From Pseudomonadota bacterium (GTDB taxonomy: Bacteria; Bdellovibrionota; Bdellovibrionia; Bdellovibrionales; JACTMU01), in contig JACTMU010000012.1 in NCBI GenBank assembly GCA_014584465.1, positions 95,333 through 159,332 on the forward strand: DNA of 64,000 nt. Direction: 5' to 3'. The notes below the pieces were generated by a model that worked only from the letters and a program-made list of their open reading frames with translations, ran no database searches and was not told where the DNA came from. Of the stretch, positions 1,233 to 33,283 are shown one piece after another. Numbering within the stretch: position 1 is the first letter of the stretch; each line of letters opens with the position of its first letter. A program made the position numbers and the translations under genes.

Positions 1233-1417
1233 TAGGGGCTGTCCGGTAATTCCATTTTTGCCGATTTCTATAAGTTTTCCTTATACCTTCGTTGAGCCTC
1301 CTCGAGTTAGCGCCTCTGGCTAGCCCTAGCGCCTCTGGCTAGCCCTTCGTCGGCCCGCCTCGGTATAAGAAAAACTTATAGAAATCGATCAAAAAGCGAA
1401 TTACCGGACAGCCCCTA
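1233..1417. mobile_element. MITE-like palindromic element, full-length copy A (185 bp, non-coding)
   Basis: TAGGGGCTGTCCGGTAATT...AATTACCGGACAGCCCCTA. The terminal arms are ~55 bp (1233..1287 and 1362..1417) and about 90% complementary. In the central core the 19-mer TAGCGCCTCTGGCTAGCCC is tandemly duplicated (1308..1326, 1327..1345). Related copies sit at 16611, 29078 and 32175. Confidence 0.8.
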
Positions 1418-4230: not shown

Positions 4231-5226
4231 ATGGGGAATTCAACAAAAGTACTTGTAACTGGCGCCAGTGGTTTTTTGGGGCACTGGATGACTCGTTATC
4301 TTTTGGACCAAGGTCTTGAGGTCAGGGTCCTTTGTCGCCACTCGAGCGATCTTTCTGAATTGGAAGGATTGAAATATGAAAAGGCTCATGGAGATGTGAC
4401 CGCACCCAGTTCGTTGTTAACAGCAATGGACGGTGTGGATTCCGTATTTCATCTTGCTGGGGTCATTGCCTATTCTCGACAGCAGAGGTTTGCTATGGAG
4501 CGAGTCAATGTTCTTGGCACTTCCTACGTTGTAGAGGCTTGCCTTCAGAAGAGGATTCGACGACTGGTTCATTTGAGTTCCGTGACTGCCATTGGAGCAA
4601 GTTTTGATGGTAGGGAGCCGCTCAACGAGGAGTCTTCCTACAATCTGACCCACCTCAATCTAGGATATTTTGAGACCAAACGCGAAGCTGAAGAGTTGGT
4701 GAGACGTGCGGTGAACAGTCGGGGTTTGAACGCGGTGATATTGAATCCTGCAACGATTTACGGAGCAGGAGACGCTAAGAAGGGGAGTCGGAGTGTTCAA
4801 CTTAAAGTAGCCCGTGGCAAGTTTCCATTTTACACGTCGGGGGGGGTGAACGTCATAGCTGTTGAAGATGTCGTTGCGGCCATTTTCACGGCTTGGAAAA
4901 GCGCTCCCAGCGGAGAAAGATATATATTGGGTGGTGAGAACCTTACCATTAAGGAGCTCTTTACGATGATTGCCGAGGAGGCGCAGGTGAATCCGCCACG
5001 AATTTATCTACCCAATGGAGTGGTTCACAGCCTAGGAGTCTTCGGAGATTTCATGGAGCGTTTCGGCAGAAAGGCTCCAGTAAATGGTGAGAGTGCTTGG
5101 ACCTCAATCCTGTTTCATTGGTTTGACAACTCAAAGGCTAAGCGCGAGTTAGGCTTAAATCCTAAACCTGCCAGAGACGCAATTCGCGCGAGTTTGGCGT
5201 GGTCCAAGAAGAAGGGTCTTATATGA
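4231..5226 (+). CDS. NAD-dependent epimerase/dehydratase (extended SDR)
   Basis: 331 aa. Rossmann motif 'VLVTGASGFLGHW' and catalytic YxxxK as 'YFETK'. Confidence 0.85.
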   Translation: MGNSTKVLVTGASGFLGHWMTRYLLDQGLEVRVLCRHSSDLSELEGLKYEKAHGDVTAPSSLLTAMDGVDSVFHLAGVIAYSRQQRFAMERVNVLGTSYVVEACLQKRIRRLVHLSSVTAIGASFDGREPLNEESSYNLTHLNLGYFETKREAEELVRRAVNSRGLNAVILNPATIYGAGDAKKGSRSVQLKVARGKFPFYTSGGVNVIAVEDVVAAIFTAWKSAPSGERYILGGENLTIKELFTMIAEEAQVNPPRIYLPNGVVHSLGVFGDFMERFGRKAPVNGESAWTSILFHWFDNSKAKRELGLNPKPARDAIRASLAWSKKKGLI

Positions 5227-6038
5227 AGAAGGGTCGCTTTAAAATGCTGATCATCTTTTGTGCTTTGTCGGTGGTGGGGGGCTATTTCTATTGGCAATAT
5301 AGAGAGTTGCCGAAGGTTCAAACACTTCGCTCATGCTTTAAAACCACACTTCATGGAGTTGATCTATGCTCAAAGAGCGGTTCGTATGTGAAGCTAAATA
5401 ATATTTCCGTGCATTTGAAACAGGCTGTGATTGTTTCCGAAGATTCCTCCTTTTACTACCATGAGGGTTTTGATTTTGAGGAGATCAAAAGCAGCTTGAG
5501 TACAAATTTTAAGGCAAGGAAGTGGCTCAGGGGGGCGTCCACCATCTCTCAGCAACTGGTAAAGAATGCCTTTTTGAATTCCGAGAAGAGTTTGCTTCGA
5601 AAGGCCAAAGAGGCTCTGCTTACCTATCATTTAGAAAAAAGCTTCACAAAAGATCAGATTCTTGAGCTTTATCTGAACGTTGTGGAATGGGGGCCTAAGA
5701 TATTTGGGATCAGACAGGCTGCACGCTACTATTTTAATAAAGTGCCAGATGATCTGGAAGTCCTTGAGTCTGCGTTTTTGGCGTTTCTGCTACCGAATCC
5801 GAAGAAATATCAGGTAAGTTTTCAAAAGGGGGCGTTGACTCGATTTGCACGAAAGCGTGTCAAAGATATTTGTCGAAAACTCTATCTCCATCAACGAATC
5901 AGTCGAGAGGTGTTCAATCAAACTCTTCGTGAAATCGATGATTTCCCTTGGAATGGAAAAGTTGATGAAGAGCTAGAGGAAAATGAAACTGAAGATGAAG
6001 ATACAGAAGAAGAATTCGAAGAAGGTCTTGTAATTTAG
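5223..6038 (+). CDS. mtgA: monofunctional peptidoglycan glycosyltransferase
   Basis: GT51 motifs 'EDSSFYYHEGFDFEEI' and 'GASTISQQLVKN'. ATG 5223 overlaps the upstream TGA (ATGA), so I chose it over the ORF-track start at 5199. The C-terminal tail is acidic. Confidence 0.85.
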   Translation: MKKGRFKMLIIFCALSVVGGYFYWQYRELPKVQTLRSCFKTTLHGVDLCSKSGSYVKLNNISVHLKQAVIVSEDSSFYYHEGFDFEEIKSSLSTNFKARKWLRGASTISQQLVKNAFLNSEKSLLRKAKEALLTYHLEKSFTKDQILELYLNVVEWGPKIFGIRQAARYYFNKVPDDLEVLESAFLAFLLPNPKKYQVSFQKGALTRFARKRVKDICRKLYLHQRISREVFNQTLREIDDFPWNGKVDEELEENETEDEDTEEEFEEGLVI

Positions 6039-6040
6039 TG

Positions 6041-6119
6041 CCTATCGCGAAACTTCATTTTGGCGGATTCACTTTTGACATTTTTGTCTCCATGTCTAAT
6101 TTCGGATCCAGGTTCTAAC
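6041..6119. repeat. ~80-bp repeat (family 2), left copy of an inverted pair flanking dus plus the tRNA
   Basis: The reverse complement of 6041..6119 aligns with 7407..7490 at roughly 85% identity by eye. The shared block is GTTAGAACC..GATCYGAAATTAG..ATGGAGACAAAAATGTCAAAAGTGAAT. It contains TTGACA (6075..6080), a 16-nt spacer, then TAATTT (6097..6102) on the + strand. Confidence 0.8.
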
Positions 6120-7173
6120 CATGACCAGAGACAAATGGAAGTTGAGGTTCCAGTTTCATTTGTTGAGATTTGTCTTCGAAGAAGTCGGAGATGAGGTCCT
6201 TGGCTGTTTCTATAGAGGTGGCTTTGAAAATCTTTTCTCGAAAAGAGCTAGAATGTGAAAAGCCGTGAGAGTACCAAGAGGAGAGTTTCTTGAGTTGAAT
6301 GAGCGCACGATGGGCCTGTACCTCTTGTTCAAGATAAAGATGGATCATCTGAAAGAGTTCTTTGTAGTTAAGATCAGGGCGTAAAGGTTGCCCCTGAAAC
6401 AGTGAGAGGGACTTTTGAAAAATCCATGGATCCTTTAGGGCCCCTCGGCCGATCATGATGCCCAAATAGGGGGCTCTTTTGAGATTGGAGACGGCTGTGG
6501 CAGGATCCACCACATCTCCATTCCCAATGATTGGGATGGGACTTTGATGGCATATCCAATCCAGGTAGTTCCAATCGACCATTCCGGAGTACCCTGCCGA
6601 ACGTGTTCGACCATGAATGCTGAGCCATAGAAGCCCACACTGATGTGCGATCTTGGCCACTTCGAGACTGTTCTTTGAGTGTTCGTCCCATCCGATTCGA
6701 ATCTTTGCCGTCACTGGGATGCGAGAGCGCTCCCTAACGGCCGAAAAGATCTTTTCAACCTGCAGGAGATCCTTAAGAATCGCAGCGCCTCCACCCTTTC
6801 GCACGACCTTGGGCACTGGGCAGCCAAAGTTGAGATCTACAAAATCAAATCCAAGATCAGAGACAATTTGAGAGGCCTCCGCAAGATCTTCTGCCCTTTC
6901 ACCGAAGAGCTGAGCTCCTATAGGACGCTCTATTTCAGAATACTCAAGAAGGTCGAACGAACGTTGATTTTGATAGAGTAGACTGCATGCGGACACGAGT
7001 TCTGTGGTCAATACACCCGCGCCCAACTCTTTCATAAAAGAACGAAAGATCCTCCCCGTAATTCCAGCCATGGGAGCTAAAAGAAAAGGATTTCTAGACA
7101 GGTAAGTCGTAATGGGCACAGAACGATCAAACTCATCGCCCCTAGCCTCTGGAGTCAAATTCAAGATTGTCAC
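6115..7173 (-). CDS. dus: tRNA-dihydrouridine synthase
   Basis: 352 aa. Dus-family segments 'LLAPMAGITGRIFR', 'VDLNFGCPVPKV' and 'LSIHGRT' are present. The stop codon (6115..6117) lies inside the family-2 repeat. Confidence 0.9.
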   Translation of the reverse strand: MTILNLTPEARGDEFDRSVPITTYLSRNPFLLAPMAGITGRIFRSFMKELGAGVLTTELVSACSLLYQNQRSFDLLEYSEIERPIGAQLFGERAEDLAEASQIVSDLGFDFVDLNFGCPVPKVVRKGGGAAILKDLLQVEKIFSAVRERSRIPVTAKIRIGWDEHSKNSLEVAKIAHQCGLLWLSIHGRTRSAGYSGMVDWNYLDWICHQSPIPIIGNGDVVDPATAVSNLKRAPYLGIMIGRGALKDPWIFQKSLSLFQGQPLRPDLNYKELFQMIHLYLEQEVQAHRALIQLKKLSSWYSHGFSHSSSFREKIFKATSIETAKDLISDFFEDKSQQMKLEPQLPFVSGHG

Positions 7174-7194: not shown

Positions 7195-7268
7195 TGGGCC
7201 CACCAGGACTTGAACCTGGGACCCACAGATTATGAGTCTGTTGCTCTAACCAACTGAGCTATAGGCCC
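7195..7268 (-). tRNA. tRNA with CAU anticodon (Met, or Ile2 read via lysidine); CCA not encoded
   Basis: Minus-strand sequence: GGGCCTATAGCTCAGTTGGTTAGAGCAACAGACTCATAATCTGTGGGTCCCAGGTTCAAGTCCTGGTGGGCCCA. The acceptor stem GGGCCTA/TGGGCCC has 7 bp including one G-U pair. It also has D-arm GCTC..GAGC, anticodon loop CTCATAA and T-arm CCAGGTTCAAGTCCTGG. Confidence 0.9.
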
Positions 7269-7406: not shown

Positions 7407-7490
7407 GTTAGAACCCCGATCTGAAATTAGCAATGGAGACAAAAATGTCAAAAGTGAATTCCCGAAATGAGGTTTCGCACCAGGCACTAA
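7407..7490. repeat. ~80-bp repeat (family 2), right copy of the inverted pair
   Basis: See 6041..6119; the orientation here is opposite. Confidence 0.8.
7424..7451 (-). promoter_or_regulatory. sigma70-like promoter candidate for tRNA-CAU and dus
   Basis: The minus strand reads TTGACA (7451..7446), a 16-nt spacer, then TAATTT (7429..7424). It lies about 150 nt upstream of the tRNA 5' end. This rests on sequence pattern only. Confidence 0.35.
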
Positions 7491-7560
7491 AATAGGGTGG
7501 CCGAACAACGGTGAAGCTGTATGATGAGAGGGGGCGATTCCACTAATAAGGGGGTGAGTC

Positions 7561-7917: not shown

Positions 7918-7977
7918 TCCGCTCGAAATGGTGATGCGATTGAGTTATAGTCCATTCAGAATTTTCCGAATGGACGA

Positions 7978-9264
7978 CTATTTGCTTGGCGAAAGATAGT
8001 GGCTCTGAAGTTGATGTTGAACGTAGAGATTCATGAACGCCTCAGAATCTCGCGAATCGATGAAGAGAGTCTGGTTCGATTTAATGAGTTTTTCCTTCTG
8101 TGAAGTGGCCAAGACGCTTCCTGTCTTCAAATAGGGGATGTACCGCTTGTTCTCTTTGAGATAGAGATAGGTCGCAAAATGGAGGATTTGATCCGTTGGA
8201 AAATCATTGGTATCCAATGCCAGCTTGCCATCAGCGTTGGGGAGTGGTCGTTTTGGGAGTGGAGACAAATCCAATTGAACAATGCCAGATGCAACCTCGC
8301 TGCGATCTTTCACCTGGTGAGCCCAATGTGGGACTCTATTCTGAGACCATTGCAAAAAGTCAAATTCATCTGATTTGATGGTAAAATCTGGTCCAAAGAG
8401 AAGAGGAGCATCTGTTCCTGCGGCCTGCCTCATCAAAAGCCCTTTGTAGTTTGAAAATAGCGATTTATTGATGCCATTCAGGTAGTTGGTTGCAAAGATC
8501 AAGTATCCTTTAGTCACTTGGGAGATGACCGGAGAGACTTCGAAAGATAGGACCTTCTTGAGGGAACCATTGGGACTTTCTTCAGGAAAGACAAGTCCAT
8601 TCAAAGCCATGCCGAGTGTCTCGGTGAGTGGACGAGACTCAAACTTTGGAGGCAATGCAGAGGTCTTTGAGGTAGAAACACGAGTTTGGCGGCTGACGAT
8701 ACGGGCCCCAGAGTCCCTATTTTGAACAGAGAATGCATCACTTGAACCACCATTCTTTCGTTGAATTCGTGCAAGCGATTCAAGAAAATTGAGCGTTGCT
8801 TTCGTGGTGGATGGATTCGTATACCAATCATGAAGAATTTTTCGAAGTTTTAGTGAGAAGGTTGGTCCACTTGCATTTTTGAACATCTTATATTGAACAA
8901 ATGGGTTTTCATCAAGTTCCTTCTCGGATTCAAGACTGAGCTTCTCGCAAAACCCCACAAGTTTAATGTTGGCTTCGCGTGGTAACCATTGAATCGTTTC
9001 CATCAACAATGCATTATGAAAGTCTGTAGCGACAAATATGAAGTCGGGCATTCGTCTCGACAAGGCTCGAATCAGATCGTTGCTATCTCCACACAAAACG
9101 GTGAACCAATGGCGATCACTTAAAAACTCTGCGGCTGGTTCAAATCGAGATCGATCTTGTGCCACAATGATCACTCTTCCGCAATAGCGATCGAAATCAA
9201 ACGGAAGCAATTTCTGCACTTGGTTGGGTTCACTTGGCAATAATGGCCTTTTTGACAAACTCAT
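7978..9264 (-). CDS. hypothetical protein with a receiver-like N-terminal region
   Basis: The ORF-track entry is 442 aa. I start it at the internal 'MSLSKRPLL' (9264). 'RVIIVAQDRS...PDFIFVATDF' resembles a CheY-like beta1/beta3 pattern. The rest is unrecognised. Confidence 0.5.
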   Translation of the reverse strand: MSLSKRPLLPSEPNQVQKLLPFDFDRYCGRVIIVAQDRSRFEPAAEFLSDRHWFTVLCGDSNDLIRALSRRMPDFIFVATDFHNALLMETIQWLPREANIKLVGFCEKLSLESEKELDENPFVQYKMFKNASGPTFSLKLRKILHDWYTNPSTTKATLNFLESLARIQRKNGGSSDAFSVQNRDSGARIVSRQTRVSTSKTSALPPKFESRPLTETLGMALNGLVFPEESPNGSLKKVLSFEVSPVISQVTKGYLIFATNYLNGINKSLFSNYKGLLMRQAAGTDAPLLFGPDFTIKSDEFDFLQWSQNRVPHWAHQVKDRSEVASGIVQLDLSPLPKRPLPNADGKLALDTNDFPTDQILHFATYLYLKENKRYIPYLKTGSVLATSQKEKLIKSNQTLFIDSRDSEAFMNLYVQHQLQSHYLSPSK

Positions 9265-15853: not shown

Positions 15854-15910
15854 AAGGTGCCAGGCGTATTTTTCGGATGCTGTGCATCCGAAAAATACGC
15901 CTGGCACCTT
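15854..15910. terminator. 27-bp perfect hairpin with a 3-nt loop followed by a T-run (gltA terminator / palindromic repeat)
   Basis: AAGGTGCCAGGCGTATTTTTCGGATGC-TGT-GCATCCGAAAAATACGCCTGGCACCTT, followed by ATGTTTTTGGGCTTTT. Confidence 0.7.
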
Positions 15911-16610: not shown

Positions 16611-16737
16611 TAGGGGCTGTCCGGTAATTCGCTTTTTTATCGATTTTGATAAGTTTTTCTTATACCGAGGCGGGCCGACGAAGGGCTAGCCAGAGGCGCT
16701 AACTCGAGGAGGCTCAACGAAGGTATAAGGAAAACTT
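16611..16737. mobile_element. MITE-like element, copy B (truncated, opposite orientation to copy A)
   Basis: It matches the reverse complement of copy A from the TAGGGGCTGTCCGG terminus through the core, with a single 19-mer, to ...GGTATAAGGAAAACTT. There are about 3 mismatches. The last ~38 nt of the far arm are missing. Confidence 0.8.
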
Positions 16738-17145
16738 CTACTTTTGTTCGATGCTGATGGCAAACTTCTTAATTCCTGCACGCTTTACGGCATCGATGAC
16801 GGAGACAACCTGACCATGCGGGACCTCCTTATCGGCAGCGATGACAGCTTGCAGGTCGGGCTTTTCAGCCACTGCCTTCTCAGCATAGGATGCAAGCGAA
16901 TCTAGATCACTGGGAGCCCCATTGAGTTGGATGGTTCCATCGCGAGACATTGAGATTTGAAGTGAAGTCGGAAGGGTGGACTCTCCTGAAGAGGCCTCTG
17001 GGAGATTTACATTGATGCTCGGTTGCATAATCATCGGAGCCGTCACCATGAAAATGATCAGAACCACAAGAATGATGTCCACAAATGGAGTTACATTGAT
17101 TGTGGCTATTGGGTCATCAGCATCGCCACCTAAGGAAGCTGCCAT
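16738..17145 (-). CDS. exbD: ExbD/TolR biopolymer transport protein
   Basis: 'INVTPFVDIILVVLIIFMV' is the TM segment, followed by a periplasmic domain. ATG 17145 shares 1 nt with the exbB stop (TGATG). Confidence 0.85.
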   Translation of the reverse strand: MAASLGGDADDPIATINVTPFVDIILVVLIIFMVTAPMIMQPSINVNLPEASSGESTLPTSLQISMSRDGTIQLNGAPSDLDSLASYAEKAVAEKPDLQAVIAADKEVPHGQVVSVIDAVKRAGIKKFAISIEQK

Positions 17146-29033: not shown

Positions 29034-29053
29034 GACTCGCACCAGGTACTATC

Positions 29054-29075
29054 TAGTGCTTGGCGCCAAGCACTA
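29054..29075. repeat. perfect 22-bp palindrome TAGTGCTTGGC|GCCAAGCACTA abutting MITE copy C
   Basis: Read directly. It lies 20 nt after the divIVA stop and 2 nt before copy C. The junction GCACTATCTAGGGGC mirrors GCACTATTTAGGGGC at 1225..1239. Confidence 0.8.
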
Positions 29076-29077
29076 TC

Positions 29078-29176
29078 TAGGGGCAGTCCGGTAATTCCAT
29101 TTTTGCCGATTTCTATAAGTTTTCCTTATACCTTCGTTGAGCCTCCTCGAGTTAGCGCCTCTGGCTAGCCCTTCGT
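29078..29176. mobile_element. MITE-like element, copy C (left half only)
   Basis: It matches copy A 1233..1326 with 1 mismatch and continues through CTTCGT as A does after its second 19-mer (1346..1351), so C carries one 19-mer. The match ends abruptly at 29176. The kinase stop codon (29165..29167) lies inside it. Confidence 0.85.
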
Positions 29177-31105
29177 AATCATTCGGACTTGGAGTTTTTC
29201 AGATTCTTTCTTGATGGCGTCATCTTCGTATTGGCTTGAGACTAATATAGATGAGTGCGAGATGTCCATTTTTTGGATCAGCTCCAAGCCATTTTCTGAT
29301 TGTCCTAATAACTCAAAGTCAACTAAGAAAAGGACATGGTCCTTGGCGTGAGTCTGGCACCAGATTTTGAAATCCGAACCAGAGGTAAAACTCAAAATAG
29401 GTACGCCTTGAATACGGTTTTTCCAAACTTGGTGGATCGATAGATCATCGTCTAATACGACCACAAGACTGTACTTTGACATATCTAACTGTTCTACGAA
29501 CCACGATGGAGAGTCCGCTCTTGGAAGATGAAGGTCAACAATGGTCCCCTGACCGGGTACGCTTTGAATGTTCAGTGTTCCTCCAATGTTCTCGATGGTT
29601 CTTCGCGCATGAAGAACTCCGATCCCAGATCCGCTTTGACTCTCTTTTTTTCCGAAAGATACAGGCATCTCTCCGAGTCTATCTAGAACATCTTTCTGAA
29701 TTCCAACACCGTTGTCTTGAACTCTAATGTGCACTTGATTCTTTGTGCCATTTACACGAACAACAATCTTTCCATGCCTATCTATAATTGCTTCAACCGA
29801 ATTGTTTATGAGATTGGACAGTGCTCGTTTAAATTCAACCTGATCAATCCTAGCAAAGCAACCATAGGATTGATTCAGATCAGAAGATATTTCAATGTCC
29901 ATTCGGTTTCGATATTGGACTCGTTTTTCAGAAATCAGCATGTCCACAAGAACGGGGATGAGTTCTGTTGTGGCAGTTGATTTTACAGATGCCGAAGTTT
30001 CCTTGTCACCTTGTTGAGTCAATTTTGCTTTACTCAAAAGTGTATTTGCTATGTCGTTGATTCGATTAGCTGCATTACGCAGGAGCAATCTTTTTTCTTC
30101 GGGGACCTGGTCAAGAGTATTGACAACCAAGGTAAGTGCAGAAAGTGGTGATCTTATGTCATGGGAAACCTGTCTTGCAGTTTGTTCCAAGAGCAAAACT
30201 TTCTCGGATTTTAGTTTTTGCAAATGAAGTTCGTGAAGATTTCTCTCTAATGTGTCAACGGCATTTTCAAGAATTCTAATTTCATTTTTTTCACCCTCCA
30301 AAGGCGAACTTTGAGCCTTATGCAGCACCTTGTTGGATAGATCCTCAATAGGTTTGACAACGAGATCTTTGAGTCTGTGAATTCCATAAACAACTGAAAG
30401 AGTCGTAACCAAGAAGATGCCGCCCAGCATTCCAAAAAAAGAGATATAACCGTTTTCCGAATCCTTAATGGTAATTTGAATCGAATCCACCTGTTCGTGA
30501 TTTTCAAACGAGCCGACAAAGATTTTGTTCTCAAATTGACTTTCCAAATCAGAAGTGGAAATTGCAACAAAAAGAACACCTACTGTTCTAGCATTAGGGC
30601 CCGACTGCTGTTGATCATCGAGACGCACAATCTTTTTGAGAATGAGAAATCCATTTACAGAGGAATAAGGAGCTCGCTCAGTGTCTCTTAACAAAACTTG
30701 TTCTAGGTCAACTGTGGAAACGTTTCCCAAATTTCCAGTTCGAATCAACTCTTGGTAATCCTTCGATACGAGCATCCAATACGTTTGTAATGATTGTTTC
30801 TGTACAAATTCTGTAATTCTGCCATAGACACGGTTTTCAAGAAATGGACGCATGACATCGGGTGCCAATAAAAAATCCGTGACTTCAGAAGATCGCAAAA
30901 AAAGCTCTGCATCGTTTTCTAAAAAAGTGAGCTGTCTCTGAATATCAGAAACAATTTGTCGGTTTTGAAATTCAACCATATTTTTGCGACGAGTTTCAAC
31001 ATTATAAATTAAATATCCAAAGACCAACGACGCCAAACTGATGGGAAGAATGCCAACAAAAAATTGAATGGATATAAATTCTTGTTTCAAAGTTCGTCTA
31101 TTCAT
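29165..31105 (-). CDS. hybrid sensor histidine kinase (2 TM, HisKA, HATPase, C-terminal receiver cut short)
   Basis: 646 aa. H-box 'QVSHDIRSPLSAL', N-box 'NLINNSVEAI' and G-boxes 'DNGVGI' and 'GSGIGV'. The receiver is 'LVVVLDDD...FLVDFEL...SILVSS...VRMITKG*'. Confidence 0.85.
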   Translation of the reverse strand: MNRRTLKQEFISIQFFVGILPISLASLVFGYLIYNVETRRKNMVEFQNRQIVSDIQRQLTFLENDAELFLRSSEVTDFLLAPDVMRPFLENRVYGRITEFVQKQSLQTYWMLVSKDYQELIRTGNLGNVSTVDLEQVLLRDTERAPYSSVNGFLILKKIVRLDDQQQSGPNARTVGVLFVAISTSDLESQFENKIFVGSFENHEQVDSIQITIKDSENGYISFFGMLGGIFLVTTLSVVYGIHRLKDLVVKPIEDLSNKVLHKAQSSPLEGEKNEIRILENAVDTLERNLHELHLQKLKSEKVLLLEQTARQVSHDIRSPLSALTLVVNTLDQVPEEKRLLLRNAANRINDIANTLLSKAKLTQQGDKETSASVKSTATTELIPVLVDMLISEKRVQYRNRMDIEISSDLNQSYGCFARIDQVEFKRALSNLINNSVEAIIDRHGKIVVRVNGTKNQVHIRVQDNGVGIQKDVLDRLGEMPVSFGKKESQSGSGIGVLHARRTIENIGGTLNIQSVPGQGTIVDLHLPRADSPSWFVEQLDMSKYSLVVVLDDDLSIHQVWKNRIQGVPILSFTSGSDFKIWCQTHAKDHVLFLVDFELLGQSENGLELIQKMDISHSSILVSSQYEDDAIKKESEKLQVRMITKG

Positions 31106-32102
31106 AGCGCAAAGACTGCCACCATTTATTAAGCACCTTAAGCTCTTCGTTGCCAGGTGGACGAATTTCTACTGCAGATGAATCTTGAACACTCTTGAGA
31201 ATTTCCCTGTAAAGCTTGATCACCTTTGGGTGAAGGCCTTTGGTATGGTTCAGATAGGGGGAAAAATATTGTGTTTTTTCCATATTCCATTCAATGCTCT
31301 CACGATCTGTAATGGCCTCTACGATTCGGATGAGACGAGATTTCTTTTGTTTTGTATTGGAAGTGATGCAAACGTAGTCAATTCCTACAACCGGATGATG
31401 TTTTGCAGCAGCAAAAGTCAGCCACGGAACAGATACATTGCCTGATGCCGAGGCTCCTTGCCAACCGTATGTCGCAAAGTTGCCTTTTTTAATGATGTTT
31501 TCGATGCTAGATGCGAAATCCTCTTTTTTTAAAAAATTCCTATTATGTGATAGCAGAGAGACACAGTTCTTAAGTGGGTTCGTCTTTCCACAACTTTTGA
31601 CATTGTCAAGCAATAAACGCGTTGCCACTTCAAGTTGATCATCAATAACACCGATTCGTATTCCATTTTCTTTGAGTTTCACGAGGTGGAATAAGGACGC
31701 CGGTGTTTCTTTTACAAATCTTGAATCGTAACTGTATACGGTAGAAGACCAAAGATACGGTATGCAGTTGTTTTTGACGACGATATCGGTGTGGTAGTTA
31801 TCCACTCGTTTCATTTGTAATTTTCGTAACGAAACATCGTCGATTAGCTTAGATTGAAACAGAACTGGTAATATTGAATTTGAAACCACGATTATATCAA
31901 ACCCATGTGTTTTTATCGCCAACTTACTTAATGCAACTTCGTTAGATCGATATTCTACAACTTGAATCTTCTCGCCTAATTTTTCAAGCTTGAGCAAGAT
32001 TCTCTTATCAAGATAGTCCCACCAATTAAGAACCCTAACAGTTTCGGCAGAAACGCTTGTTTGCCACAAGAACATCAGTAAAATGTAGATTCGCCCGGTC
32101 AT
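31098..32102 (-). CDS. periplasmic solute-binding protein (PotD/PotF-like)
   Basis: 334 aa. The signal peptide is 'IYILLMFLWQTSVSA', and 'VRVLNWWDYL' is typical of polyamine-type SBPs. The gene overlaps the kinase start by 8 nt. Confidence 0.65.
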   Translation of the reverse strand: MTGRIYILLMFLWQTSVSAETVRVLNWWDYLDKRILLKLEKLGEKIQVVEYRSNEVALSKLAIKTHGFDIIVVSNSILPVLFQSKLIDDVSLRKLQMKRVDNYHTDIVVKNNCIPYLWSSTVYSYDSRFVKETPASLFHLVKLKENGIRIGVIDDQLEVATRLLLDNVKSCGKTNPLKNCVSLLSHNRNFLKKEDFASSIENIIKKGNFATYGWQGASASGNVSVPWLTFAAAKHHPVVGIDYVCITSNTKQKKSRLIRIVEAITDRESIEWNMEKTQYFSPYLNHTKGLHPKVIKLYREILKSVQDSSAVEIRPPGNEELKVLNKWWQSLRYE

Positions 32103-32174
32103 TTCAATTCCATTGTGTAGAAAATTATTTCGATGAATTCTAGCAACGAATTAGGGCACATATCAAATCAATTG

Positions 32175-32337
32175 TAGTCTGTTCGGAAAATTCTGCGATG
32201 CAAATTGCGAAGGTGTTTTTTATCAGATTGAATAAAAATCGACGAAGGACTAGCCAGAAGCTAATCCGAGGAGATCTTTGTTCAATCTGGTGAAAAAGAA
32301 CGAGGAAGTTGTGTCGTAGAATTTTCCGAACGGACTA
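32175..32337. mobile_element. MITE-like element, copy D (divergent subfamily, 163 bp)
   Basis: Termini are TAGTCTGTTCGGAAAATTC...GAATTTTCCGAACGGACTA. Its core CGACGAAGGACTAGCCAGAAGCTAATCCGAGGAG matches CGACGAAGGGCTAGCCAGAGGCGCTAACTCGAGGAG of copies A and B. The arms differ in sequence from A but remain self-complementary. Confidence 0.7.
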
Positions 32338-33132
32338 TATGTAGTTTTTTTTCTGCCGTATTTGAATCAAAACTTTGGAGAGCTCCTCAAAGCCCTCGCC
32401 ACCTGGTTTTTGTGTTACAAATTGAGGCTTGTGATGCATTTGGTGAACAAAGTTTTGAACATTTGCAACGCCAACTGAAAACGGAAAATATCCAAACATA
32501 GGTTCATCGTTTGGCGAGTCGCCGCAGAAGATCACCCGATCTTTGCATTCGTCCAAATTGAGTTGATGCTCATTTTGAAAATAGATCTTACAGGTCGAAA
32601 GTTTGTCGTACTCGCCGAACCATCCATTGACATGAATGGAACTTACTTTGGCTTGAGCGCCATGTTTTTGAAAGATCGAAACAATTTGATTCACGCTTTT
32701 GGGATCCAGTGGGGGGACATCTTCACAAAAATCAATGGCAAGATCCATTTGTCGACAAAACTGATCAGAAGCCACTTGAGCTCCTGGAATGTTGTTAAGC
32801 ACCTCTCCCTCGATCTTCTTAAGAAGTTGGCGGTTCTTCTTTCGCAACTCTTCCTGAACTAGATAAACGCGTTTCATCTGACCCTTGAGTTGACGAAAAT
32901 AGAGCCCTCCATTTTCACCAACAACTCCATCCACAGGCCAAAAACGAGCTATCATTTCACACCACCCCGCGGGGCGACCGGTGATGGGCACAATCTGAAA
33001 TCCGTGATCATTGAGTTTCCAAAGGGCATCGTAGGCTGGACTTTTCAATTTGCCATGATCGGTGAGGGTGTCATCGATATCGGTAAGTACCCATCGTATG
33101 GAGCTTGCATCCAGCTCCTTCAGTGACTTCAT
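32335..33132 (-). CDS. HAD-IIB family hydrolase (sugar-phosphate phosphatase-like)
   Basis: I start it at ATG 33132 (MKSLKELD...). HAD motif I is 'VLTDIDDTLTD', and 'ITGRP' and 'CGDSPNDEPMF' are also present. The stop codon is the terminal TAG of copy D. Confidence 0.8.
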   Translation of the reverse strand: MKSLKELDASSIRWVLTDIDDTLTDHGKLKSPAYDALWKLNDHGFQIVPITGRPAGWCEMIARFWPVDGVVGENGGLYFRQLKGQMKRVYLVQEELRKKNRQLLKKIEGEVLNNIPGAQVASDQFCRQMDLAIDFCEDVPPLDPKSVNQIVSIFQKHGAQAKVSSIHVNGWFGEYDKLSTCKIYFQNEHQLNLDECKDRVIFCGDSPNDEPMFGYFPFSVGVANVQNFVHQMHHKPQFVTQKPGGEGFEELSKVLIQIRQKKNYI

Positions 33133-33283
33133 GTGCCCCTCCCTCTGTTTCTCGAGTCTCAATCTTATGGAACAGACCCTAAGTCCTAACGGCATGCGTT
33201 GATTGGAATTTCCTCTTGCTTGCCCTATCTATCCAAACCATCTTATAAGCCTACCTTCTATTTACAATTTCGAAATTGGGATT

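Follow-up and report, generated by a model that had tools for sequence, protein, structure and literature searches.

What does a stretch of DNA conserve when most of its letters have changed? The question arises at positions 32175-32337 (+ strand) of the window (the whole 64,000-nucleotide stretch analysed here), where a 163-nt imperfect palindrome, copy D, had been set beside three other repeats, copies A, B and C. The original prediction held that the arms of copy D had diverged from those of A to C and still paired with each other, that the core had been kept, and that such a pattern argues for selection on a folded nucleic acid, or on a core recognised by a protein, rather than for neutral decay. 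To answer the question we consider what kind of element copy D is, how its relatives vary, and whether selection acts on each inserted copy or on the lineages that multiply.

Copy D and its relatives in the host genome

Copy D lies between a HAD-like gene and the promoter region of the next gene (31098..32102, - strand), for which a sigma-70-like site is present in the native flank (32166..32137, - strand). It reads TAGTCTGTTCGG...CGACGAAGGACTAGCCAGAAGCTAATCCGAGGAG...CCGAACGGACTA, exactly as it had been quoted. Its features are the following:

Copy D: 32175..32337, + strand; full-length member of the 'D' family, a hairpin MITE-like element
Left arm of copy D: 32175..32239, + strand; terminal inverted repeat TAGTCTGTTCGGAAAATTCT, assigned from folds and the family alignment
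Conserved tip of copy D: 32240..32273, + strand; 5' GACGA tract, mini-hairpin and 3' GAGGAG tract
Mini-hairpin of copy D: 32247..32267, + strand; GGA-C-TAGC-(CAGAA)-GCTA-A-TCC, which covaries between lineages
Right arm of copy D: 32274..32337, + strand; terminal repeat at the end ...AGAATTTTCCGAACGGACTA
TAG stop of the HAD-like ORF: 32335..32337, - strand; supplied by the terminus of copy D
Flanking TA: 32338..32339; right copy of the D-family TA (TATA) target duplication

The left counterpart of the target duplication (32173-32174) is a degenerate TG. Within the left arm, GCGAAGG (at approximately 32207-32215) forms the 5' half of a purine-rich internal loop. Neither an intrinsic terminator nor a promoter was found within copy D.

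The arms do pair along their whole length. Folded as RNA, the + strand forms a single rod of 66 pairs at -86.4 kcal/mol, compared with -36.2 +/- 3.4 kcal/mol for shuffled versions (z -14.9, none of 200 as low); folded as DNA, it reaches -42.5 kcal/mol (z -10.7). The - strand, as RNA, gives only -57.7 kcal/mol, and a covariance model scores 158.1 bits on the + strand versus 60.7 bits on the - strand. The sense strand of copy D, which reads CGACGAAGGACTAGCC, is the + strand of the window and is antisense to both flanking genes.

It is also correct that the arms share little with those of A to C: identity in gapped global alignments is 0.55-0.71, to be read against a baseline of about 0.54 for shuffled arms (13-lineage set). 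The termini are still recognisably akin (CCGTTCGGAAAATTC in copy D, CTGTCCGGTAATTC in A to C), and homology extends to the centre, which is CGACGAAGGACTAGCCAGAAGCTAATCCGAGGAG in copy D (32240-32273) and CGACGAAGGGCTAGCCAGAGGCGCTAACTCGAGGAGG in A, B and C.

One part of the earlier description must be revised. Copy D does not stand alone as a diverged member of the A-C family; it belongs, as an ordinary copy, to a separate sister family, represented by 8 full-length and about 9 partial copies with 77-95% identity (BLAST and covariance model) in the genome that holds the window (G000; 3.75 Mb in 120 contigs, 46.8% GC, Bdellovibrionales). The A-C type itself divides into A1 (TAGGGGCTGTCCGG...) and A2 (TAGTGCCTGGCGCG..., with sub-variants), with about 154 and 151 termini, respectively, in this genome. 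Jointly, A1 and A2 account for about 150 centres and 305 termini in 3.75 Mb. Further arm types, each with one or two copies, are E (on C46) and F (on C75 and C115). The elements are each 163-170 nt long and begin with TAG or TA. The 165 centres found in G000 comprise 132 in intergenic positions, 18 within crude ORF calls and 15 at contig edges, and the covariance model matched 129 among 150 candidates scored. Counting about 165 loci at some 140 nt apiece, the elements can be put very roughly at 0.6% of the genome.

The other members in the window are:

Copy A: 1233..1417, - strand; A1, full length, with TATTTA on both flanks
Copy B: 16611..16741, + strand; A-type, with a truncated right arm
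Copy C: 29078..29176, - strand; A1 half-element ending at the border of the centre
D-type remnant: 7950..7982; two termini alone, joined as a short hairpin

Copy A carries a 19-nt tandem duplication of its centre. A kinase ORF (29165..31105) enters the centre of copy C and terminates at its CTAG.

The window also contains several related structures. Two inverted halves of another A2-like repeat type lie 1.3 kb apart (6035-6121 and 7407-7494). They bracket two genes of the - strand, one dusB-like (6115..7173) and one encoding a tRNA (7195-7268); A2-like termini occur here at 6035-6062 and 7467-7494. The A2 left terminus, in the sense direction, is TGGCGCG-AAAC-CTGCT (for example, at C10:41659 in G000). 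This is near the sigma-54 consensus, TGGCACG-N4-TTGCW. The A2 right terminus has CTCAT at the matching place and so does not have the -12 GC. A perfect 27-bp hairpin at 15854-15910, whose stem base GGTGCCAGGCG resembles an A2 terminus, may be a centre-less remnant like those at C37:40494 or C111:28929. In addition, short palindromic units ending ...GGCACTA adjoin A1 copies at 1105-1233 and 29040-29077, where GCACTATTTAGGGGC and GCACTATCTAGGGGC form the junctions. Insertion seems to take place beside the TA-rich ends of other elements.

Covariation and the level of selection

The covariation check that had been proposed was carried out on ten lineage representatives aligned with MAFFT, for which RNAalifold predicts 46 pairs. 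Changes on both sides are seen in 33 of these. In the alignment, 95.4% of cells are paired compared with 72.4% after shuffling (0 of 500 shuffles as high), and the covariation score is 0.710, compared with 0.244 for shuffled sequences and 0.08-0.18 when the partners are slid by 1-3 columns; such shuffle statistics overstate independence, the lineages being related. A larger set of 40 distinct sense-strand copies from 10 genomes, placed in a model-guided alignment, has 96.7% of cells paired and double changes at 44 of the 46 pairs. The controls give 58.3% (maximum 61.1) for shuffled sequences and 37-47% for slid partners, the latter being the fair control for this set because a model-guided alignment favours structure.

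All 18 lineage representatives share the same format, a rod-like hairpin with almost perfect pairing (163-170 nt, 58-69 pairs, -71 to -109 kcal/mol), and arm identity between lineages is 0.60, near the 0.54 of shuffled arms. With pairing and covariation far above the shuffles, the arm substitutions are compensatory well beyond chance. Nor is the similarity of the core a coincidence: the tip is nearly invariant and its small hairpin covaries.

Across lineages the mini-hairpin of the tip has the form GGR-C-UAGC-loop-GCUA-A-YUC. In the 40-copy alignment its covarying pairs include 94:145 (GC:24/AU:15), 93:146 (GU:19/CG:13/UA:5) and one further pair (AU:33/GC:6); a second set of counts gives 80:98 (AU:10 GC:7) and 83:95 (AU:12 GC:4 UA:1). 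The mini-hairpin is flanked by (GAS)n tracts, in which a 5' GACGACGAA goes with a 3' GAGGAGGAG, the reverse arrangement being present in other lineages; a Watson-Crick position in these tracts flips from CG:30 to GC:8. To judge from these letters, the antiparallel tracts can form C-G/G-C pairs alternating with tandem G·A/A·G mismatches, with the G·A pairing being a prediction. Among A2 copies, divergence is 0.018 per site in the centre compared with 0.06-0.08 in the arms. A likeness of the tip to SRP RNA, and its reading as a CsrA site, were considered by eye and set aside: the 5' GGA is base-paired and is not conserved in every lineage.

The arms also contain parts that do not pair and yet persist. 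An asymmetric purine-rich loop, GCGMAGGRA opposite RAACAAGC, is kept in D, E and the lineages of G015, G431, G262, G410 and G375, while the stems around it change, and GC/CA is likewise conserved in A1 and A2. These features bear on a reading without structural selection, in which complementarity is restored by fold-back synthesis, by gene conversion between the arms, or when two inverted half-elements recombine at the centre. Half-elements ending at the centre are common, A1/A2 chimeras are joined at the centre, and one lineage (G433) has long, nearly unbroken arm pairing in its predicted fold, all of which such processes could produce. They would not be expected to leave asymmetric loops and fixed mismatches conserved between families and genera while the adjoining stems covary, mismatches skewed to G·U on one strand, or a length held at 163-170 nt. 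Simple regeneration of palindromes is disfavoured because the purine-rich asymmetric loops persist while the flanking stems change, and we regard an origin of the complementarity without structural selection as very improbable.

Where, then, does selection act? All 18 lineages fold at least equally well on the sense strand, with 72 versus 48 G·U pairs, and the family-level arm mismatches on this strand comprise 28 of the G·U type versus 9 of the A·C type. The private changes of individual copies comprise 55 G·U-type transitions, 43 A·C-type transitions and 60 transversions; private pair-breaking changes within families are roughly neutral. Double compensated changes track sub-family structure (26 versus 9.9 expected in A2, 7 versus 2.0 in D). 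Copy D has about 7 private unilateral changes of its own. It is a decaying insertion, a slightly worn copy of a small mobile element.

At the level of the family, the data support selection on a folded nucleic acid whose core is recognised. The original claim stands for the comparison between propagating lineages, where covariation is seen, and falls for the copy D locus itself, where private changes break pairs. Because the sense strand folds at least equally well, the mismatches are skewed to G·U and private changes are roughly neutral, we conclude that the constraint acts on one strand of fixed polarity in the lineages that multiply, and not on each inserted copy.

A fixed polarity could also reflect a function for the host, with a transcribed sense hairpin serving as a 3'-end stabiliser, as an RNase III or RNase E site, or as a dispersed platform or sponge to which an RNA-binding protein attaches; selection on such a role would then maintain both fold and tip. 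The preference for the sense strand in 18 of 18 lineages would fit, as would the combination of conserved loops with covarying stems, a classic non-coding RNA pattern, and the invariance of the tip over hosts of 39-74% GC. Correia and ERIC elements work in this way in mRNA (PMC10969869). The sense strand is co-oriented with the genes in tandem intergenic regions in 43 cases versus 26, although this bias is weak (p about 0.05), and the strand asymmetry does not point to RNA alone since G·T wobble is also tolerated in single-stranded DNA. Individual copies gather pair-breaking changes about as neutrality predicts, copy D is antisense to both neighbouring genes and no match is found in Rfam. We consider a host-level RNA function unlikely.

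Insertion, breakage and the candidate mobiliser

Several observations identify the elements as MITE-like. They are short, non-coding, multi-copy and dispersed, with terminal inverted repeats (TAGTCCGTTCGGAAAATTCT ... AGAATTTTCCGAACGGACTA) and a target-site duplication. TATA precedes 24-28 of 30 D termini, and A1 and A2 termini are preceded by a direct TANNTA. Among 67 complete elements, about 40 have identical NN letters at their two ends (chance expectation 1 in 16), and this agreement of the variable part shows TANNTA to be a target duplication. At C52:57205-57531 in G000, an A1 element has landed in a D-type mini-hairpin and is flanked on each side by a duplicated TAGCTA. This nesting is a built-in filled site and is the sole filled/empty comparison, a pattern search of metagenome contigs having found no empty site for copy D. 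The length of the duplication varies by lineage (TA, TAA, TATA, TANNTA), which would be odd for a single transposase family.

The insertion preference also explains the stop codon of the neighbouring gene. As had been noted, the 286-aa HAD-like ORF (32335..33195, - strand) takes its TAG stop from the CTA at 32335-32337. Of 335 element termini, 32 have a TAG that stops an adjacent ORF (A1, 20 of 154; A2, 11 of 151; D, 1 of 30), and at 17 further termini the outer TA of the target duplication acts in a stop codon. This feature arises because TA-targeted insertion occurs beside stop codons and the elements end in TAG; the HAD stop is a by-product of the insertion target and the TAG terminus.

A second regularity concerns the centre. 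Only 36 of approximately 132 A-type centres lie in fully intact elements. A junction is found directly to the right of the 23-nt centre GGGCTAGCCAGAGGCGCTAACTC in 44 cases and directly to the left in 31, and in none on both sides. In more than half of the A-type copies, a deletion, a duplication or a junction with foreign DNA falls precisely on the edge of the 23-nt centre. Examples of centre-border junctions are C32:359, C8:89222, C37:43017 and C107:1732, as well as copies A and C of the window. In 28 copies with both termini intact, one end of the deletion lies at consensus 61-74 or 88-97 and the other is variable. Replication slippage as the source of these centre-anchored deletions is ruled out by the microhomology at the junctions, which is 0-1 nt in 21 of the 28. 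Three A1/A2 chimeras are joined at the centre (C47:16836-16998, C81:340-503 and C97:27302-27464), which indicates recombination between families at the tip. The centre looks like a site-specific cut site or a barrier at the mini-hairpin, with a possible contribution from assembly.

Centre-abutting deletions without microhomology would suit site-specific nicking followed by strand transfer, as in a REPIN-like system in which single-stranded DNA hairpins are moved by a Y1 (HUH) transposase of the RAYT/IS200 type that also cuts beside the mini-hairpin. The elements resemble REPINs in being hairpins with compensatory changes, and the strand asymmetry is present. There are, moreover, two Y1_Tnp genes in G000, one of which (C6:446-1027) ends 22 nt before a full-length D copy (C6:1049-1210). 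This adjacency fails to hold across genomes and an association with RAYT was rejected. Y1_Tnp is found in 8 of 11 carriers and in 46 of 70 other genomes, so that there is no co-occurrence; G015 and G017, with 18-20 copies each, are without it; and the Y1 genes of G000 are not bracketed by elements on both sides. IS200/IS605-type transposition makes no target duplications, and the present elements possess them. A REPIN-like mobilisation is, in our opinion, improbable.

Other candidate partners were also sought. DDE_3, DDE_Tnp_4 and mariner domains are absent from G000. Its DDE_Tnp_1, rve (Mu/IS21-like) and Y1_Tnp genes are not bounded by element termini, and neither its group II intron-type reverse transcriptase nor a second reverse transcriptase carries such termini. 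An IS630-like gene of G017 was considered as an autonomous partner and rejected, its ends being unrelated to the element. For the families searched, no autonomous IS with element termini was found in G000 or in five other carriers, and metagenome-assembled genomes often miss multi-copy ISs.

The explanation that we favour, and hold to be probable, is a superfamily of MITE-like hairpins whose mobilising machinery recognises the fold together with the tip, and whose inserted copies decay. What the machinery (a transposase or a host factor) would recognise is the tip together with the hairpin, read as a single strand in one polarity. Lineages would continue multiplying only as long as they retained the fold, and a copy, once inserted, would lose the constraint and then decay. 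A more specific form of this model appears doubtful to us. In this, the elements would be mobile structured nucleic acids of a new kind: in a rod-like single-stranded hairpin, the invariant G·A-rich tip, and not the termini, would be the recognition module for a hairpin-reading mobilisation enzyme or for a conserved host protein titrated by the scattered copies, and the enzyme would cut beside the 23-nt centre. Cutting at this position would generate centre-anchored, homology-free deletions, duplication of the centre and chimeras.

Distribution and comparison with known systems

The covariance model built from the elements (R1) detects this architecture, again at 163-170 nt, in 11 of the 81 genomes searched from the order, with carriers spanning 7 GTDB families besides that of G000, and one carrier genome contains at least 35 copies with at least 5 arm families. 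An exact-pattern scan finds G000 alone among 401 genomes of the phylum, and a scan of 185,579 species adds only one other metagenome-assembled genome; such scans underestimate the spread because both loop length and arms vary. The 33-37 nt tip pattern is also present in seven metagenome contigs of 39-74% GC, in which the GC content of the arms tracks that of the contig and that of the tip does not. The superfamily is present in the Bdellovibrionales and in other bacteria.

Among the metagenome contigs, L067 (Ga0075429_100004720, element at 4402-4560), L068, L070 and L071 are 70-74% GC and have the same tip with GC-rich arms. In L067 a methyltransferase gene and a serine-hydrolase gene converge, and the element occupies exactly the space between their stop codons.

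The elements matter for annotating and assembling Bdellovibrio-like genomes because of their share of the genome, the stop codons that they donate, the gene fusions and the deletion hotspots: they provide the stop codons for approximately 10% of adjoining ORF ends, they fuse to or truncate genes, and they mark sites of frequent deletion. The covariance model can be used for masking or mapping them.

A literature search retrieved no paper on MITEs or elements of this kind in Bdellovibrio, and Rfam 15 families gave no match, only sub-threshold scores to microRNA hairpins. The elements represent a MITE superfamily that has not been described before, and the way in which they are conserved is unusual and RNA-like. 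They are not members of the Correia, ERIC/YPAL or REPIN families, as judged by eye and by the features compared below.

The closest parallels are Correia elements (CREE) of Neisseria and the ERIC/YPAL elements of enterobacteria and Yersinia. These are likewise small, non-coding, whole-element imperfect palindromes (roughly 100-170 bp) with terminal inverted repeats and a TA target; they too are intergenic, often at gene ends, and able to supply signals to neighbouring genes. Correia elements have Neisseria-type 26-bp terminal repeats and a central IHF site. The IHF consensus, WATCAANNNNTTR, was not seen in the A-type centre on inspection by eye. By eye, the present elements show no resemblance to the Correia termini, and no sequence similarity to Correia or ERIC/YPAL elements is apparent. 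In the present elements conservation is strongest in the tip rather than at the termini, and one tip is common to many families that differ in termini and duplication length and span at least 7 GTDB families. To our knowledge, centre-anchored deletions have not been described for Correia or ERIC/YPAL elements. When transcribed, hairpins of the Correia/ERIC type are RNase substrates (PMC10969869).

REPINs are a precedent for compensatory changes in hairpin mobile elements (PMC3116915). They are likewise dispersed, hairpin-forming repeats of about 100 nt with compensatory stem changes and persistence in lineages, from which selection for a single-stranded hairpin has also been inferred (PMC3116915). 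They differ in conserving both ends (the REP sequences) and varying the spacer, whereas the present elements conserve the centre and vary the ends. In addition, REPINs are without target duplications and adjoin a single-copy RAYT gene; the present elements have such duplications and no RAYT linkage.

With structured non-coding RNA families (Rfam) the elements share covarying stems, conserved loops, strand polarity and tandem G·A motifs, and they differ from these in being multi-copy and in having target duplications.

In the usual MITE families the ends are kept and the middle drifts. The present superfamily reverses this: a tip of 35-50 nt is almost letter-perfect in genomes of 39% to 74% GC, the stems covary, and both the ends and the length of the target duplication change across the superfamily. 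This pattern is the signature of a structured functional molecule that rides on, or constitutes, a transposon, and some conserved factor in these bacteria must read its tip.
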